Shown piece by piece: positions 1-6,995 of a stretch of DNA of 6,995 bases. Origin of the DNA: a virus (taxonomy: Duplodnaviria; Heunggongvirae; Uroviricota; Caudoviricetes); IMG/VR virus record IMGVR_UViG_2675903654_000024, positions 1 through 6,995 of that record. One strand, 5' to 3'. The notes below the pieces were generated by a model. It did no database searches and was not told the DNA's origin. It worked only from the letters and a program-made list of their open reading frames with translations. A program made the translations under genes and the position numbers. Numbering within the stretch: position 1 is the first letter of the stretch; the number at the start of each line of letters is the position of its first letter.

Positions 1-1032
1 GAAGGCTGGGCCATACTCCTCCGGCAGAAGCAGAAAAAGCTTATTATGCTTCCATCGGAAACGATGATCTGGCAGCCTGAGTTCACAGATAAAACACTCT
101 CCAGGAAACCCGGGGCGGTTCAGATCGCAAGACAGGAACGGCTTGGGACGTCTGCCAATCAAAGCCTGCTTACATCCTTGCGTAACCTACGTGAAGAATT
201 AGCAAACCCTGCAACTGATTTGGATGTTACGTTTGATCTCTTGCGTCAGCACAGAACAGCATTTAGATCTAATGTTCAGGGAGATGCTATGGTCTTCCCC
301 AACCAGGCAAAAGCAGCTACCAATATGGTAGAGAATGCAATGTCAAAAGACCTTCGTAACGCAGTTGCTAAAAACCTCGGTGCATCAGACGCAGCAAAAT
401 ACCTTAAAGCAAATTCCGATTATGCAAACGTTTATAATAAGGTGCTTAATAAAAACATTGCTAACAAGCTCAATAAGGCAAGTAGTGAAGCCAGCCCTGA
501 ACTTATAAGTACCGTTGTATTAAGCAGAAAACCATCTGACGTGAAACGAATCTGGAGCGCACTGGATGATAAGGGGAAAGATGCTATGCGTGCAGCTTAC
601 GTCAGCAAAATAGCGGAAAAGGCCGGGGACTCTCCAGCCAAGTTCATCACTGAAGTTAATAAGCTGAAATCTCAGTCAGGCGGTGAAATTTACAACACTA
701 TTTTTTCTGGAAAGCACATGAAAGAGCTTGATGCTCTTCATGAAGTTCTACAGCAAACAGCAAGGTCAGACACCGCAAATGTAGTAACTCAGACGGGGCA
801 ATTGCAAGCCAACAGGATAAGGACGATTGGCGCAACTGCGACCCTTGGTGTATCACTGGGACTTGAGGCTGGTTTCGGTGCAATCATGCGCTTGTATGAG
901 TCCAAAGCAGCAAGGAATGCTCTCTTACGTCTGGCAAACACCAAAGCAGGAACGCCAGCCTATGAAAGAGCGTTAAGTAACGCTGCAAATGCCGTCAGGC
1001 CGCTGTTTGCTACTGAGGCAACACGGCAGTAA
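1..1032 (+). CDS. Virion ejection / DNA-transfer protein (P22 gp16-like), 3' portion; gene starts upstream of the window
   Basis: The reading frame of the listed 46..1032 ORF is open from base 1 (gaa ggc tgg ... no stop before the Met at 46), and there is no Shine-Dalgarno before the ATG at 46, so the gene most likely continues upstream. The protein is Ala/Lys/Asn/Ser-rich and low in complexity, typical of internal ejection proteins. Its position immediately upstream of the immI module matches the P22 order 16 - (sieA) - mnt - arc - ant - 9. Product assignment is by synteny and composition, not by recognised sequence identity. Confidence 0.5.
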
Positions 1033-1056
1033 CGTATGGGAAATTGGATTCAATCG

Positions 1057-1446
1057 CTAACATTTTCTTTTTACTTTTCCAACAAAAGCTTTGGTTGAAT
1101 CCATATTTCCATAACCGGAAATGGTTTTTGACATTAAAACTGTTCCAGTAGGATGTATTACCCATGAGTCGATAACGCGTTGAGTTTCGCCATTCGCGCC
1201 GATTCCTATGATGGAGTTTTTAGACAATTCTTTGTAAGCCATGCCGCCCGCATCTGTCCCAGAATATGTGATGCTGGCATCTTCACCGCTTGTCTTAATG
1301 ATGAATGTTCCACTAAAACCATCTTCTTCCGGATGGAAATTATTTCGCTCTGAATAGCTTATTCCGCGCATATCTCCAACGACCCAGCACTCTGCTGTAG
1401 CCCCAAAAGATATGAATAAGAACATAGCAGCAAGAAATTGCTTCAC
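1057..1446 (-). CDS. Sec-signal-peptide secreted/periplasmic protein of unknown function (prophage cargo gene)
   Basis: GTG start (plus-strand cac at 1444..1446) preceded on the coding strand by a strong AAGGAGG Shine-Dalgarno (plus-strand cctcctt at 1452..1458, 5-nt spacer). N-terminus MKQFLAAMFLFISFGATA/EC has a basic n-region, hydrophobic core and A-T-A cleavage motif. There is no lipobox (Cys is not at +1). The mature ~111 aa has two Cys, one near each end. Confidence 0.7.
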   Translation of the reverse strand: MKQFLAAMFLFISFGATAECWVVGDMRGISYSERNNFHPEEDGFSGTFIIKTSGEDASITYSGTDAGGMAYKELSKNSIIGIGANGETQRVIDSWVIHPTGTVLMSKTISGYGNMDSTKAFVGKVKRKC

Positions 1447-1814
1447 ACCAACCTCCTTAGTTTTGAGCAGGATACCAGATGATACTTTATTGGTGGAGTG
1501 GTGTGTGAAAACGTGTCAACGACAAACCATCCACAACTTGGACGAATGATTTAGCAAAAAGTGCTATTTTTGGTGTTTGGTGTCATAGAAACGTGAATAG
1601 CTTACTTTTCAACATTGCATGAAACTTGCAGGAAATGTGACATTACCTTATAGGTAACTTCGGCGAAAATGCAGTAAATGTGAAACGTAATGGTTTAAAC
1701 ATGTCGCTAAAGTGGTTGTAAGTTAGCCTCCGAAGGATTGCTGATAGCTTTGTTATAGTATTAAATGACATTTGACATAGTTGGATACTTAGCTGCGGCT
1801 ATCAAGATGGAGGT

Positions 1815-2264
1815 ATGTTTATGCTCACTTGTTTTGATGTCGCCGACTACTTCTTGGCGCATTGCGATGAAGAAAGTGGCGACATTATCTCTAACCTAAA
1901 AATTCAGAAGTTGACGTATTATGCCCAAGGGTTTTCTCTGGTTCTTCTGGGTAAGCCGCTATTTAATGAGAAAATTGAAGCCTGGATGCATGGGCCAGTA
2001 GTTCCTGAATTGTATCGTAAATATAGGGACTGTGGTAACGGCGCTTTACCTGCGCCAGAAAACTTTGACGCTAAAAAATTCAGTGAAGATGAAATTGAAT
2101 TGCTGGATGAGGTGTATAAAGTTTATGGTCAGTTTTCTGCCTGGAAACTGCGCAATATGACTCACGAAGAGCAGCCATGGAAAGATGCTTACATTGAGGG
2201 TGCGGTTAGCCAAGAAATCACACTTGATTCTATGAAAGGTTTTTTCAAAACGTTAATTAACTGA
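1815..2264 (+). CDS. Panacea/DUF4065-domain protein (PanA/SocA-type antitoxin-like)
   Basis: Residues ~27-67 (NLKIQKLTYYAQGFSLVLLGKPLFNEKIEAWMHGPVVPELY) match the signature I recall for DUF4065/Panacea 'phage-associated protein' family members (KLQKLLYYAQ ... GKPLF ... EAWxxGPVxPxxY). Size (147-149 aa) fits the family. GGAGG at 1809..1813 is 1 nt from the ATG at 1815 and 7 nt from the in-frame ATG at 1821, so 1821 is the more likely true start. TTGACA hexamer at 1772..1777 upstream. Confidence 0.7.
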   Translation: MFMLTCFDVADYFLAHCDEESGDIISNLKIQKLTYYAQGFSLVLLGKPLFNEKIEAWMHGPVVPELYRKYRDCGNGALPAPENFDAKKFSEDEIELLDEVYKVYGQFSAWKLRNMTHEEQPWKDAYIEGAVSQEITLDSMKGFFKTLIN

Positions 2265-2269
2265 CGTGT

Positions 2270-2692
2270 ATGTCTAGAGTTAAGGGAAGAATAAAACAGA
2301 GGGATAAAGAGAGCTCTGCTACTGTTGGCCTCTCTATCCATCACGAATCTCATGATGTAGACAAAAGTCCGCCTGTATTTTCTCTTAGATACCTACAAAA
2401 GGGGTATTGCCTAGATTGCTGCCAAAAGCATGAAAAGGCAGCATTTGCAGATAGGCTGTTCAGGTTAAGTCAGATGTCATGGGATGAGATACGAAAATCT
2501 GATAAACACGGGCTTGGGACGGAAAAAATTGCCAGAAACGCGATAAAGGCTCCGATTCCTAAGCATGTTACTCAAGATGTGGATTTCATTGCGTTCAGAT
2601 TTTGCTCTAAGGCACCTATGGTTGGTTATAAGATAGGAGCCACTTTTTATGTCTTATGGCTCGACAGGGAGTTCAAGCTATACAAGCACTAA
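2270..2692 (+). CDS. Hypothetical basic protein; candidate toxin/effector partner co-transcribed with the Panacea-domain gene
   Basis: ATG at 2270 lies 5 nt after the upstream stop (tga 2262..2264) with no independent Shine-Dalgarno, suggesting translational coupling. 140 aa, Lys/Arg/His-rich, no hydrophobic segment, a CLDCC cysteine cluster, and a C-terminus (GYKIGATFYVLWLDREFKLYKH) loosely reminiscent of RelE/ParE-type toxin C-termini; that resemblance is weak and unverified. Followed immediately by a strong intrinsic terminator. Confidence 0.6.
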   Translation: MSRVKGRIKQRDKESSATVGLSIHHESHDVDKSPPVFSLRYLQKGYCLDCCQKHEKAAFADRLFRLSQMSWDEIRKSDKHGLGTEKIARNAIKAPIPKHVTQDVDFIAFRFCSKAPMVGYKIGATFYVLWLDREFKLYKH

Positions 2693-2693
2693 T

Positions 2694-2719
2694 AAAACCC
2701 ACCGTCAGGTGGGTTTTTT
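2694..2719. terminator. Bidirectional rho-independent terminator between the convergent Panacea operon and the zinc-ribbon gene
   Basis: Perfect 10-bp stem AAAACCCACC (2694..2703) / GGTGGGTTTT (2708..2717), 4-nt loop GTCA, T-run 2714..2719 on the plus strand and an A-run on the left flank (U-run for the minus-strand transcript). Lies 1 nt after the stop of 2270..2692 and 17 nt after the stop of the minus-strand gene 2736..2939. Confidence 0.75.
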
Positions 2720-2735
2720 GTTGGAGATAAAATGG

Positions 2736-2939
2736 TTAACCAAATCGATCCTTAAAGCGTCTATCGCTGTTGCGTCTCTCCATTTTACTGTTGCAGTACG
2801 GACAAAGATGCTGTTTCTTTCCATCGATAGTCCATGTGAAGTACTTTTTCTTAAATCCAGCACCACAGATATCGCAACTTCTTGGTTTAAACATGCTGGC
2901 TATGAAGACAAGAACAACAAATCCTATGATCCATTCCAT
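2736..2939 (-). CDS. Small membrane-anchored zinc-ribbon protein (N-terminal transmembrane helix plus CxxC-N20-CxxC)
   Basis: 67 aa. N-terminal hydrophobic segment MEWIIGFVVLVFIASMF, then CDIC ... CPYC with about 20 residues between the Cys pairs (zinc-ribbon pattern), and a basic C-terminal tail. Weak AGGT ribosome-binding site upstream on the minus strand. The two overlapping plus-strand ORFs lack these protein-like features. Confidence 0.6.
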   Translation of the reverse strand: MEWIIGFVVLVFIASMFKPRSCDICGAGFKKKYFTWTIDGKKQHLCPYCNSKMERRNSDRRFKDRFG

Positions 2940-3080
2940 ATCATGTACCTGTTTTAACTTTATTTTTTGTTTTTTAGGGATTAATCAGAAACTTTATCTT
3001 GCGATTAAGCAAAGCTACTAGCTAACAAAAGAGTGCGTATACAATCAATCGTTTCACATCAACCTCAACAAGGAGAAATC

Positions 3081-3266
3081 ATGACCATAGAAGAACGCCT
3101 GAACAACATTGAGTTGAACCAAACCCTGCTTGACCAGCGACTTTCAGATCTTGAGCTTAAAGATCTTGATGCGCAAATATCAGAAGCAGAAGCCAAGCTC
3201 TCCAGCCTAAACCACCGCAAGAAGCAAATCCGCAACAGAATTACTCAGGGACGCGGAAGCTGTTGA
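3081..3266 (+). CDS. Small coiled-coil protein, hypothetical
   Basis: ATG at 3081 is preceded by AAGGAG (3070..3075) at 5-nt spacing. The listed ORF start at 3033 is a GTG without a good ribosome-binding site, so I take 3081 as the start (61 aa). Sequence is Glu/Leu/Lys/Asn-rich (IEERLNNIELNQTLLDQRLSDLELKDLDAQISEAEAKL), consistent with a coiled coil. Its 3' end overlaps the convergent gene 3241..3450 by 26 bp. Confidence 0.5.
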   Translation: MTIEERLNNIELNQTLLDQRLSDLELKDLDAQISEAEAKLSSLNHRKKQIRNRITQGRGSC

Positions 3267-3450
3267 GGTGGGATGCTAGGTCTCTATCGTTAAAATCAAG
3301 GCTGCTAATCATTTCATTGTAAATGGCGTTTTTATCTTCCATTGGCAGTCTTGAGTAAACCAGACACAGAGCATATTTCAGGGAGTTTAGCTCTTTCTCT
3401 AGCTCTTCCTTGCTTGACGTTTTTGACTTAATAAACTGTTTTTTATTCAT
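3241..3450 (-). CDS. Hypothetical 69-aa protein translationally coupled to the end of mnt
   Basis: Its start codon overlaps the mnt stop in an ATGA arrangement (plus-strand tcat at 3447..3450), the classic sign of co-transcription and translational coupling with the upstream Mnt-like gene. No recognisable domain. Confidence 0.55.
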   Translation of the reverse strand: MNKKQFIKSKTSSKEELEKELNSLKYALCLVYSRLPMEDKNAIYNEMISSLDFNDRDLASHLNSFRVPE

Positions 3451-3695
3451 TTTGCATCCTTACCATACATGGTTTTCAGTGTTTCAAGCAGCGCCTCTTT
3501 GAATTTGTCAGCTTCTTGCTGAGCAAATGACTCAACTGACTTTGGCGACCTATCTTCATCAATCGCGGCTTGCAAAATCATGACGATCTCGGAGTTAACA
3601 GAGCGACCATTTTTTGATGCTCTGACAGCAAGAGCCTCGCGCAAAGATTCAGGGATTCTTACCGTAGTTGGAGAAATTGACACACCCTTTGCCAT
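3447..3695 (-). CDS. mnt: Mnt-like ribbon-helix-helix repressor (immI maintenance-of-lysogeny repressor)
   Basis: 82 aa. The N-terminal segment VRIPESLREALAVRASKNGRSVNSEIVMILQAAI aligns with the P22 Mnt motif as I recall it (FRMPMEVREKLKFRAEANGRSMNSELLQIVQDAL). Divergent from an Arc-like gene, as in P22 immI. AGGTG Shine-Dalgarno upstream on the minus strand. Confidence 0.85.
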   Translation of the reverse strand: MAKGVSISPTTVRIPESLREALAVRASKNGRSVNSEIVMILQAAIDEDRSPKSVESFAQQEADKFKEALLETLKTMYGKDAK

Positions 3696-3809
3696 AGCAC
3701 ACCTTTGGTATTCAATTTGATATCAAAGTGTATGCAAAAGAAATTTGACTAGATATACTCACTTTGCTATCTTTTGTATTCGAAAAGAGTCGCTTGTGCG
3801 GAGGGTAAC
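3696..3809. promoter_or_regulatory. Divergent immI control region (candidate Pant, Pmnt and Arc/Mnt operators)
   Basis: 114-bp gap between divergent mnt and arc. Plus strand: TTGACT (3745..3750), 17 bp, TATCTT (3768..3773) as candidate Pant, about 35 nt upstream of arc. Inverted repeat AGATA (3751..3755) / TATCT (3768..3772) sits inside that spacer, where the Arc operator lies in P22. Perfect 12-bp palindrome TTTGATATCAAA at 3716..3727, 21 bp upstream of the mnt start. Operator assignments are by analogy to P22 only. Confidence 0.55.
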
Positions 3810-3962
3810 ATGGAGAAAGAAATAAGTAAGATTTTGGTAAGGATGCCGCAGTCGTTAAAGGACGCTATCGGTAGCAGGGCAAAGGAAGAATGCCGGTCGT
3901 TTAACTCGGAAGTGATTAAGCGGTTGATAGACAGCCTGAAGAGAGAGGGGATAACGGTGTGA
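3810..3962 (+). CDS. arc: Arc-like ribbon-helix-helix repressor
   Basis: The listed ORF starts at 3774, but the in-frame ATG at 3810 is preceded by GGAGGG (3800..3805), giving 50 aa. The sequence KILVRMPQSLKDAIGSRAKEECRSFNSEVIKRLIDSLKREG aligns with P22 Arc as I recall it (FNLRWPREVLDLVRKVAEENGRSVNSEIYQRVMESFKKEG). Divergent from mnt, upstream of ant. Confidence 0.85.
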   Translation: MEKEISKILVRMPQSLKDAIGSRAKEECRSFNSEVIKRLIDSLKREGITV

Positions 3963-4114
3963 TTCGCTTGGATGCAGTAGTCAAAGAGATTGCGATTACC
4001 ATTTTAAGACCAAATTTTGTTCATGGCGAATCATTTGGCACGAACGAAAAATTGAGAAGAGAAAGAGTATTCAGTGGCAAGCGCACATTTTCAGAAGTGA
4101 TGCTTGATGCGGCA

Positions 4115-4194
4115 AAGAAATCAAAACAGTGAAGCCCCAACTGCGGTAACAGTCAGGGCTTCGGTTGTCGGTAAATTCGTGGAGAAAAACCAAC
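4115..4194 (-). ncRNA. Candidate sar-like antisense RNA covering the ant ribosome-binding site (approximate ends)
   Basis: Minus-strand extended -10 (TGcTATACT; plus-strand AGTATA at 4201..4206 with gca at 4207..4209) would start transcription near 4193, running leftward across the ant Shine-Dalgarno (GGAGA 4181..4185). The hairpin at 4131..4162 forms a fully paired 13-bp stem (two G-U pairs, loop UUACCG) only in the minus-strand RNA, followed by U-rich ACUGUUUUGAUUUCUUU; the plus-strand version has two C-A mismatches. P22 has a ~69-nt sar RNA with this role. Ends are inferred, not measured. Confidence 0.4.
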
Positions 4195-5097
4195 ATGAAT
4201 AGTATAGCAATTTTAGAAGCAGTGAACACCTCTTACGTACCATTCAACGGTCAGCAAATTATCACCGCCATGGCTGCCGGAGTTGCATATGTTGCGATGA
4301 AGCCAATCGTTGAAAACCTTGGAATGAGCTGGTCAACGCAGCAAACAAAACTCATGAAGCAGATTAGCAAATTCAACTGTGTTCATATGAACATGGTTGC
4401 CGCTGATGGGAAGCTTCGTAAGCTACTCTGCCTTCCTTTGAAGAAGTTAAATGGATGGCTGTTCAGCATCAACCCCGAGAAAGTTCGAGCTGACATCCGC
4501 GATAAACTGATTCAGTACCAGGAAGAATGCTTTACTGTACTGCATGACTACTGGACAAAGGGAAAGGCAGAAAATGCACGTAAGAAAACATCTGTTGATG
4601 ACAGGACTCCGCTTCGTGATGCTGTAAATATGCTAGTCAGCAAAAAGCATCTAATGTACCCAGAAGCTTATGCAATGATTCATCAGCGTTTCAATGTGGA
4701 AAGTATTGAAGAGCTTGATGCATCTCAGATACCGCAAGCCGTAGAGTACATCCACAGGGTAGTGCTTGAAGGTGAGTTCATCGGCAAACAAGAGAAGAAG
4801 CCCAACGGGCTTTCCGCAAAAGAAACAGACATCCTTGTATGGCTGTGGGATTATGCCAACCGCTCACAGGCATTATTCCGCGAACTGTATCCGGCGCTGA
4901 AACAAATTCAATCGAACTATTCCGGCAGATGTCATGACTGCGGTTATGAGTTCTCCCGTATTATCGATATAGCGAGAGACGTTTTAATCAATCACACACT
5001 AGATGTTGATATTAATGAGCCAGACGGACCAACGAATCGTTCCGCATGGATGAGACTTAAGAATAAAGAATTACCTCCTTCAGTACATAACTACTGA
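4195..5097 (+). CDS. ant: Antirepressor Ant (P22 Ant-like)
   Basis: The listed ORF begins at a TTG (4165), but the in-frame ATG at 4195 follows GGAGA (4181..4185) and gives exactly 300 aa, the length of P22 Ant. It is directly downstream of arc and upstream of the tailspike gene, as in P22 immI. Identity is by synteny and length; my recall of the P22 Ant sequence itself is partial. Confidence 0.8.
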
Positions 5098-5115
5098 CAG
5101 ATAACCAACGCAACG

Positions 5116-5140
5116 ACCCAGCTTCGGCTGGGTTTTTTTT
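5116..5140 (+). terminator. Rho-independent terminator downstream of ant
   Basis: Stem ACCCAGC (5116..5122) / GCTGGGT (5127..5133) with a TTCG tetraloop, followed by an 8-T run (5133..5140), 19 nt after the ant stop codon. Confidence 0.8.
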
Positions 5141-5198
5141 ATGCCCAAAATTCACCGTAGCCATGCTGCGGCGATTCCTTGCATCTGGAGCAAATTAA

Positions 5199-6995
5199 AT
5201 GACAGACATTACAGCCAATGTGATCGTATCGATGCCTTCGCAACTCTTCACTATGGCGCGTTCTTTTAAAGCGGTTGCCAATGGCAAAATTTATATTGGT
5301 AAAATTGACACTGACCCTGTAAATCCTGAAAACCAGATTCAGGTTTATGTGGAGAACGAAGATGGTTCTCACGTCCCTGTTTCGCAACCAATCACCATTA
5401 ACGCTGCTGGTTATCCGGTATATAACGGACAGATTGCCAAGTTCGTAACTGTACAGAATCACTCCATGGCTGTTTATGATGCATATGGTGCACAACAATT
5501 CTATTATCCTGATCTACTTAAATATTCTCCAGACCAGTTAAGGGCTGAGCTTTCTGGCCCTGATGGCGCATCTCTGGTTGGTTATGGAGGCACAACCGTA
5601 AAGATTGAGCTGGAGATCTTGAAAGCTACACATGATTCATTAATTGATAAAACAGGATTTAACGCTATTGGCCGCTTTCTCAATCTTTCAGAGCTTCGCT
5701 CCTGTGTTCCAGAGGAGGCAGGGCAGATTGTATACGTAGCATCAGCAGCTAGCACTACACATGCTGAAAACCACCTTGGTGGCGGCTTTTTCGAGTCTGT
5801 TGATAACATTCAGGCGTGGGCTGATGATGGTGGAATTGTAATCAAGCCAGAAACTGGAACGATGGTATGGAGACGAATTAATTTTACCACTTACGACATG
5901 CAATTTTGGGGGGTGAAACCTGACGGAGTCACAGATAACGCAACAGCTATAACTCTTGCAACTAACTTTGCCCGCTCAAACAAATGCATTCTAGAGGCTC
6001 CTGCTGGAAACATAAATACATCAAAAACAATCCCAATTTATGACAATATGGGAATTAGAGGACAGGGAAAGGCTGAAGCGACAGTTTTTTATAAAACAAC
6101 AAATGACAAAATAGATCTCACAAAAAATGGAGAAGTAATTCTTCAGGTGGATGCATTATGTGCTTTTATACCAAAGCAATGGGATCTAACAGATAACTCA
6201 ATGAGTTCATTTTGTGTTAACGGTAGAGTTGAAAACTGCATGTTTAGAAGGCTTGGCTTAACACAAGAAAATGTAGATTCTTATAGAAATTATTACGGAC
6301 TGTTTTTAGGAAAATCAGCAGCACCAGTTATCAGACAGTCAATTTTTGAATGTGCTTATATCGGATGCTTCTCTTATGTGCCGTTCTCTGGCGTAATGGA
6401 AATGGTCGGTTTCCCACAATATCCAGGGAAAGGATATGCTGGAGTTTTATTTGAAGATTTTAGGGATGGTCAAATAAAAGTAATAGGCACTTCTATGGAT
6501 ATGCGCCTTGTTCAGGTTAACGGTTACCAGTTGTCATTTAGAATGTCAGGAATGCAATATACCACCATGACCAATTGTACTGCTGAAAACTGCACGCCAA
6601 TGGATGGGGAGTCAATTTGCTATGCATTTGATTTTGTAAATCCGTATTGCATTGTCATGAATACTTGTGCAACAGAATTTGTTAAGGGTGGGCAACTTCG
6701 TGTTAGCGTTCAGGGAAACCCATCATTCAGACCATCTATTATTGTCAATGGCTTTCTGCCAATTGATCAACAAAGCCCGGTAGTGCAAACACCTATAATA
6801 GATATTGATAATGGTGGCGTAGTTGAAATGAGTGTCATATTAAATGGTGGAGATTGGGCTATAAATCCATCTGCTACAAATTTAGCCGTACCAAGAGCAA
6901 GCGGAAATGGGTTGAAAGCAAGGTTAATAGGTGTAAACGGGTCGCCTGTTTCGATCTGGAGCGTGTCTCCTGGCGCAGATGTGAAGGAGTTCTAA
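5199..6995 (+). CDS. Tailspike protein: P22 gp9-like N-terminal head-binding domain fused to a divergent receptor-binding domain
   Basis: GGAG at 5187..5190, 8 nt before the ATG. The first ~113 aa ([34 protein letters not shown] ... DGSHV ... INAAG ... VYNGQ ... VTVQ.HSMA.YDA ... LKYSPDQ) closely match the P22 gp9 head-binding domain as I recall it. The remaining ~485 aa has no similarity I recognise to the P22 receptor-binding domain; it is Asn/Gly/Cys-rich with recurring VNG/LNG/IDNGG motifs suggesting a beta-helix or beta-rich fold. Complete ORF ending at taa 6993..6995. Confidence 0.9.

Follow-up and report, generated by a model that had tools for sequence, protein, structure and literature searches.

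We analyzed positions 1 to 6,995 of the Caudoviricetes record IMGVR_UViG_2675903654_000024 (IMG/VR), a stretch of 6,995 nucleotides (nt) hereafter called the window, and addressed the nature of a two-gene operon at 1815-2719 in a P22-like prophage region. The first gene, here panA, encodes a Panacea-domain protein, and the second encodes a small basic protein, here the partner, for which a RelE-type fold was predicted. The two genes form an obligate two-gene unit and, judging from sequence comparison, are a second, distinct allele of a pair from Salmonella phage vB_SemP_Emek (hereafter Emek) that has been published, and experimentally examined, as a PanAT system. We consider a PanAT-type module to be the probable explanation of the pair: PanA would keep a RelE-fold RNase inactive, and release of this RNase would arrest translation in the service of the prophage.

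Operon anatomy and obligate pairing

The two open reading frames (ORFs) lie on the same strand, and the ORF list of the window gave exactly the coordinates claimed in an earlier note on this DNA (the original prediction), 1815..2264 (plus strand, 149 amino acids, aa) and 2270..2692 (plus strand, 140 aa). The operon comprises the following features.

1447..1814, no strand: intergenic control region, between a divergent 129-aa minus-strand ORF and panA
1809..1813, plus: Shine-Dalgarno sequence GGAGG for panA, read from the sequence
1815..2264, plus: panA (gene 1), stand-alone Panacea-domain protein, 149 aa (147 aa from 1821); predicted antitoxin or sensor
2265..2269, plus: spacer of 5 nt (CGTGT), without a Shine-Dalgarno sequence
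2270..2692, plus: partner gene (gene 2), PanT cluster T1 type, 140 aa; predicted latent RNase
2694..2719, plus: intrinsic terminator, with an A-tract, a 6-bp GC-rich stem, a GUCA loop and a U6 run

The assignment of gene 1 to the Panacea family, originally made from a core motif, was borne out by a profile search. The motif NLKIQKLTYYAQGFSLVLLGKPLFNEKIEAWMHGPVVPELY occurs in ORF 1, and residues 30-123 of PanA match PF13274 SocA_Panacea (DUF4065) over profile positions 1-113 of 113 (E = 2.2e-24, 87 bits vs a cut-off of 25.7). The Pfam search gave no further domain in PanA, including no DNA-binding domain, so that it is a stand-alone Panacea protein; it also matches phrog_1281 (E = 1.5e-59) and corresponds to the RefSeq entry WP_001331791.1, annotated as "Panacea domain-containing protein." The Panacea domain is common to PanA and to SocA of SocAB, the type VI toxin-antitoxin (TA) system of Caulobacter; however, PanA was rejected as a SocA orthologue, scoring 61.8 bits against the NCBIfam model NF047745 with its equivalog cut-off of 190, and the partner is a RelE-fold protein and not SocB.

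The start of panA is ambiguous between 1815 and 1821. The GGAGG sequence stands 1 nt from ATG 1815 vs 7 nt from ATG 1821, which makes the latter the better-spaced start; in the other allele, GTG occupies the equivalent of 1815, and the start chosen by RefSeq in Escherichia coli Res13 corresponds to 1821 (147 aa). Upstream of panA, TGtTATAGT (1751-1759) was read by eye as a candidate extended -10 element, and TTGACA is present at 1772-1777. No operator-like inverted repeat was found in the panA upstream region.

The panA stop codon TGA (2262-2264) is followed by CGTGT and then by the partner ATG at 2270, and no GGAG-like Shine-Dalgarno sequence was present in the 25 nt 5' of this ATG (TCAAAACGTTAATTAACTGACGTGT). 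The sequence thus agreed with the proposed 5-nt gap and lack of a ribosome-binding site for gene 2, and the partner gene is likely translationally coupled to panA. The strong terminator ascribed to the end of the operon was likewise present: it begins two nt past the partner TAA stop, where an A-tract is followed by a CCCACC-GUCA-GGUGGG stem-loop with a folding energy of -18.6 kcal/mol (z = -4.1; 0/200 shuffles as stable). A simple terminator scan did not pick up 2694-2719, and the identical sequence carries a rho-independent terminator annotation in phage Emek; the terminator is possibly bidirectional. The two products are of opposite charge, PanA being acidic (isoelectric point 4.8) and the partner basic (isoelectric point 9.6), the latter as originally described.

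That the two genes belong together, as the original prediction had held, was most clearly demonstrated by a genome-wide scan for the partner, in which 80 loci were kept and 3 were truncated by contig ends, leaving 77 assessable. A PanA homologue (E <= 1.3e-31) immediately preceded the partner, in the same orientation, in 77/77 assessable loci (77/80 kept), mostly with gaps of -20 to +3 nt. In three distant genomes, a Panacea gene (144-149 aa) directly preceded the partner in unrelated neighbourhoods, and no recurrent third gene was found beside the pair beyond synteny within one group of 14 loci. The pair was present in chromosomes of cyanobacteria, Pseudomonas, Acidobacteria, and others, often outside any phage context. 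With its 5-nt gap, this consistent pairing and no third gene, the operon shows the paired gene arrangement by which PanAT systems were defined (Kurata et al. 2022). Across the 77 pairs, the variable segments were PanA residues 121-140 and partner residues 1-30, which are candidates for a specificity interface. In seven temperate phages of Pseudomonas aeruginosa (vB_Pae_CF60a and six others), the pair was located directly after a putative transposase gene (L090 1369-3420), and their partner is 40% identical to that of the window.

The partner protein and its published relatives

The partner, which is hydrophilic (grand average of hydropathy, GRAVY, -0.53), had been described as matching no nameable family, with Pfam searches and a structure-based comparison with RelE/ParE and other folds proposed. 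The Pfam search remained empty, with no match for the partner nor for any of 65 family members, and structure prediction supplied a fold. Residues 1-30 were predicted to be disordered and basic, and residues 31-140 were confidently predicted as a RelE/BECR-fold domain, with a beta-strand, two helices, an antiparallel sheet, and a C-terminal tail bearing Tyr and His. The partner thus has the alpha/beta fold of the RelE/ParE superfamily (BECR fold). At the sequence level, its membership in the curated RelE, ParE, HigB, YoeB, and YafQ families failed in the Pfam, PDB, and hhalign comparisons: single-sequence and profile searches of PDB chains gave nothing meaningful, and hhalign against YoeB and YafQ (E. 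coli sequences) gave probabilities of at most 1%.

The claim of no family did not hold. The partner aligns with phrog_8366 end to end, and its 260 homologues (132-145 aa, 45-74% identity) extend over Enterobacterales, cyanobacteria, and one archaeal metagenome-assembled genome (MAG); its profile retrieved 1,472 clusters at 50% identity clustering. The family alignment contained 15 invariant columns, with H80, R79, R89, D103, R133, and H140 conserved in at least 90%, and the pattern recurred in an independent set of 75 genome-derived partner sequences. H80, E85, R89, R110, D132, R133, Y138, and H140 are conserved candidate catalytic residues, and the partner would be an RNase.

The only informative sequence-level relationship was with NsnC. 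Positions 185-280 of 284 of the PADLOC NsnC model match the partner (E = 1.8e-7), and the same C-terminal match was obtained in 64/65 partner family members, with a best E of 1.4e-11. Menshen is an anti-phage system (Millman 2022), and a domain analysis (NAR 2025, PMC12065111) described NsnC's C-terminal domain as PB-BECR1, a YafQ-like RNase domain bearing an H-R-H triad, and proposed PB-BECR1 as the ancestral effector of Menshen. By profile comparison, we regard the partner as homologous to this RNase domain, whose YafQ/RelE-like BECR fold carries conserved His, Arg, and His candidates. The differences from Menshen are nevertheless considerable: the 140-aa partner is without the inPIN N-terminal domain, the NsnC match starting only at position 185; NsnA (ParB-DUF262) and NsnB (ABC ATPase) were absent from the window and not conserved beside family members; and here the BECR domain stands alone, paired with Panacea. 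A complete, three-gene Menshen (NsnABC) system was accordingly rejected for the window. Panacea/DUF4065 is unmentioned in the Menshen paper (PMC12065111), and we did not meet the link between T1 and the Menshen effector domain in the literature searched. Below threshold, the partner matched NCBIfam NF046006, the MAG6450 family (25.1 bits, cut-off 40; E = 1.9e-5; profile 7-101 of 103). MAG6450, itself described merely as a "conserved hypothetical protein," probably represents a distant relative, and the match suggests that Mollicutes contain relatives, in agreement with the Spiroplasma proteins that belong to the published T1 cluster.

The ribosome-dependent type II toxins RelE, HigB, YoeB, and YafQ share their fold with the partner, and like it they are small, basic, and encoded second in a bicistronic operon after an acidic antitoxin. 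However, the partner has no detectable sequence similarity to them and carries an extra disordered, basic N-terminus of about 30 aa; their antitoxins are RelB, HigA, YefM, and DinJ, whereas here the first gene encodes a Panacea protein without a DNA-binding domain; and the two members of the partner's T1 family that were assayed were scored as nontoxic.

PanAT systems were defined by Kurata et al. 2022 (PNAS 119:e2102212119, PMC8832971), who placed the Emek pair YP_006560565.1/YP_006560566.1 in PanAT toxin cluster T1, with "mRNase" as the predicted mode of action; this agrees with the RelE-fold result for the window partner. T1 is the first-listed PanT cluster and occupies at least 217 rows in the accessible part of the published table (PMC8832971). 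The window partner belongs to the same cluster by its homology to YP_006560566.1 (57% identity, E = 9e-49), the PanA gene upstream, and the same locus and flanks. Thus, the kind of system (PanAT), the cluster (T1), and, from the corresponding locus of a sister phage, even the orthologous pair have been published before, and the proposal of the partner as a candidate new toxin was not supported. In the accessible part of the supplementary files of Kurata et al. 2022, there was no match to WP_001331791, the PanA allele of the window, and the pair is not mentioned in the NetFlax supplements (Ernits 2023) or in the P22 SieA paper.

Alleles, annotation, and the prophage locus

Compared with phage Emek, PanA is 70% identical (YP_006560565.1) and the partner 57% identical, and the gene order, the locus between the DNA-transfer gene and mnt, and the terminator are all as in the window. 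The nucleotide identity changed abruptly along the locus. It was 96-100% over 1447-1846, which spans the intergenic region 5' of panA together with the initial ~30 nt of the gene, and the intergenic part was 96-100% identical to the E. coli Res13 allele as well; it fell to 60-70% inside panA and to 49-62% over most of the partner gene (2247-2646), and rose again to 90% in the last ~70 nt and the terminator (2647-2719). These sharp boundaries, with flanks of 90-100% around coding sequences of 49-70%, indicate that an allelic cassette has been exchanged at a fixed site in the prophage. The Res13 prophage of E. coli, which carries the other allele, has a gene annotated as a ClpP-like protease subunit immediately 3' of the PanAT pair (L089 3628-4164, minus strand). 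This neighbour is notable in that SocA, the founding Panacea protein, is a ClpXP adaptor.

The annotation of the partner gene is uneven. Under RefSeq/PGAP, it (window 2270-2692, also L001 6569-6991) was unannotated in 34/34 complete E. coli genomes with a copy at least 99% identical; annotations of it exist in phages EC.P3, E212, and Emek, and of the other allele in E. coli. In E. coli UMNK88, the partner ORF is intact and identical, and the annotation holds instead an overlapping 102-aa ORF across the partner 3' end and the terminator (window equivalent 2649-2957), which is probably spurious. In Emek, the annotated orf161 (YP_006560566.1, L003 3317-3802, 161 aa) starts at a TTG within panA, whereas the homologous ATG (L003 3383), 4 nt past the panA stop, gives 139 aa, and the RefSeq call for a 99%-identical E. 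coli copy (WP_024232777.1) uses this short 139-aa start. The Emek protein assayed by Kurata et al. was thus not only another allele but also the 161-aa annotation and not the 139-aa form; given the conserved ATG and the RefSeq call, the construct scored as nontoxic was probably mis-started and carried a spurious N-terminal extension of ~22 aa.

The context is the immI region of a P22-like prophage, with a Mnt-like Arc-domain repressor, Arc, Ant (P22_AR_N/C), and a tailspike with the P22 head-binding domain; the 3' part of the DNA-transfer gene is also in the window, according to the annotation of the matching phage Emek and E. coli UMNK88 regions. The nearest records were Lederbergvirus phages and E. 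coli prophages integrated beside tRNA-Arg. Three further features were located around the operon.

1057-1446, minus: 129-aa ORF at the exact P22 sieA position, directly after gene 16; matches phrog_2651 (unknown function)
2736-2939, minus: 67-aa ORF; hydrophobic segment at the N-terminus plus zinc-ribbon-like CxxC...CxxC motif (weak match to Zn_ribbon_8)
4128-4194, minus: sar antisense RNA (RF00262), 87 bits vs a gathering score of 43; opposite the ant start, as expected for immI

In P22, the order is 16, sieA (minus strand), ORF59 (minus strand), mnt, arc, ant, 9, from which it follows that the operon occupies the same gene 16-mnt accessory slot. The original prediction, which had placed the operon at the sieA locus, was therefore correct for the slot, but in the precise place of sieA lies the 129-aa ORF. 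Neither is a SieA relative: the 129-aa ORF proved unrelated (E = 1.1), and blastn of the operon region against the P22 locus found only 34 nt in common. SieA and the operon thus share the accessory region between gene 16 and mnt without homology, and sieA lies on the opposite strand from the operon. The 129-aa ORF has a hydrophobic N-terminus (MKQFLAAMFLFISFGATAEC) that resembles a signal or lipoprotein peptide, and the Emek annotation notes its similarity to Sf6 gene 38; the ORF might represent another moron, with a function at the surface or in exclusion. The 67-aa ORF gave no PHROG match and converges on the operon terminator; the segment 2720-3069 is missing from phage Emek, which marks this ORF as an additional, inserted moron. 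In its distal part (5644-6995), the tailspike gene matches Escherichia phage TL-2011b (95%) instead of the phages matching the rest of the window, and the GC content falls to 0.35 around 6001-6400; together, these observations indicate a mosaic receptor-binding domain in the tailspike.

Proposed mechanism and alternative explanations

For the PanAT-type module that we favour, the following course is proposed. The pair would be an accessory cassette (moron) in the gene 16-mnt slot of a P22-like prophage, whose single transcript would yield both proteins, the partner through translational coupling. PanA would bind the partner directly and hold it inactive, as suggested by analogy with five other PanAT pairs, for which complexes of PanA and toxin were demonstrated by pull-down. 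If PanA were lost, or if its Panacea domain sensed a cue, the partner would be set free, cleave RNA, and arrest translation, so that either the cycle of a superinfecting phage would be aborted or excluded, or loss of the prophage would be penalised (addiction). The RNase activity, the trigger, and the role in prophage defence or addiction are the conjectural parts of this scheme. In its favour stand the pairing in 77/77 loci with differing neighbourhoods, the acidic and basic products, the spacer without a Shine-Dalgarno sequence, the operon's own terminator, and the listing of the Emek orthologue in T1 with the label "mRNase"; a stand-alone Panacea domain, moreover, can directly neutralise its toxin (Ernits et al.).

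Several observations weigh against it. The PADLOC defence models searched with PanA gave no match, a scan for the sigma-70 promoter consensus gave no match on the plus strand upstream of panA, and many family members adjoin housekeeping genes rather than defence islands. Above all, when two T1 members, YP_006560566.1 of Emek (from the same prophage locus) and WP_077635758.1 of E. coli MOD1, were produced from pBAD33 in E. coli, each was scored "not toxic" (PMC8832971), because of which classical toxin behaviour is no more than putative for the T1 family. The original prediction had itself named a partner harmless on its own, in combination with an operon without effect on phage infection or plasmid stability, as evidence against it, and the first of these outcomes is in print for two relatives, one of them expressed from the construct that was probably mis-started.

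These negative results lend most weight to the alternative that the pair is a dedicated two-protein unit other than a TA system, in which the RelE-fold protein is harmless and PanA is its partner, chaperone, or activator. The RelE-fold protein might then act as a regulator that binds ribosomes or RNA, or as an RNase whose narrow target is nonessential or phage specific; the Menshen authors indeed allow that NsnC-type effectors might target phage rather than host RNAs (PMC12065111). Obligate pairing fits a heterodimeric functional unit equally well, and Ernits et al. favoured a sensory role for Panacea. However, the N-terminus of the Emek construct was probably wrong, and 8/25 PanTs tested were nontoxic in E. 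coli, a result that, for the authors, leaves room for toxicity in the native host (PMC8832971); in addition, type II TA systems typically show this fold, an acidic and a basic product, this gene order, and a scattered mobile distribution. We regard this alternative as rather unlikely, though it is the strongest of those considered.

Two others appear far less probable. Since ParE has the RelE fold too, the partner might be a ParE-like poison of DNA gyrase instead of an RNase, which we consider very improbable. At least as doubtful is a counter-defence role, with PanA as a decoy antitoxin by which PanT-type defence toxins of the host would be neutralised during infection. The operon is phage borne and shares its orientation with the flanking DNA-transfer and tailspike genes, and read-through from the structural-gene transcript is conceivable; yet the two genes are paired in 77/77 chromosomal loci, often with no phage context, and PanA always occurs with its own partner. 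Finally, that gene 2 is a spurious ORF, as its missing annotation in the 34 E. coli RefSeq genomes might suggest, was ruled out by the conservation data, namely, the intact ORF in UMNK88, 45-74% identity across E. coli, cyanobacteria, and archaeal MAGs, and the 15 invariant residues, together with the confident fold and the annotation in EC.P3, E212, and Emek.

Beyond the PanAT-type module, we tentatively raise a more specific possibility, that T1 PanAT pairs are trigger-dependent sensor-effector immunity modules rather than classical TA systems. Panacea would silence a stand-alone PB-BECR1 RNase of the Menshen type until a phage cue arrives, the interchangeable sieA-slot alleles of P22-like prophages would be superinfection-exclusion cassettes, and the C-terminal tail of PanA and the N-terminal tail of the partner would set allele specificity. 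Such a sensor-effector organization would explain why the over-expressed "toxin" is harmless.

The discovery value of the operon itself is small, and its novelty was overstated, since its kind, its cluster, and an orthologous pair were already in print. Two points are worth passing on, the link to the Menshen effector domain and the Emek construct that was probably mis-started. Because of the latter, one of the two negative toxicity tests in print deserves to be repeated, and the lack of RefSeq annotation of the partner in 34 E. coli genomes means that surveys of annotated proteins under-count the module. The homology of T1 to the Menshen effector domain leads to a testable hypothesis, that the family may comprise latent RNases that need a trigger.

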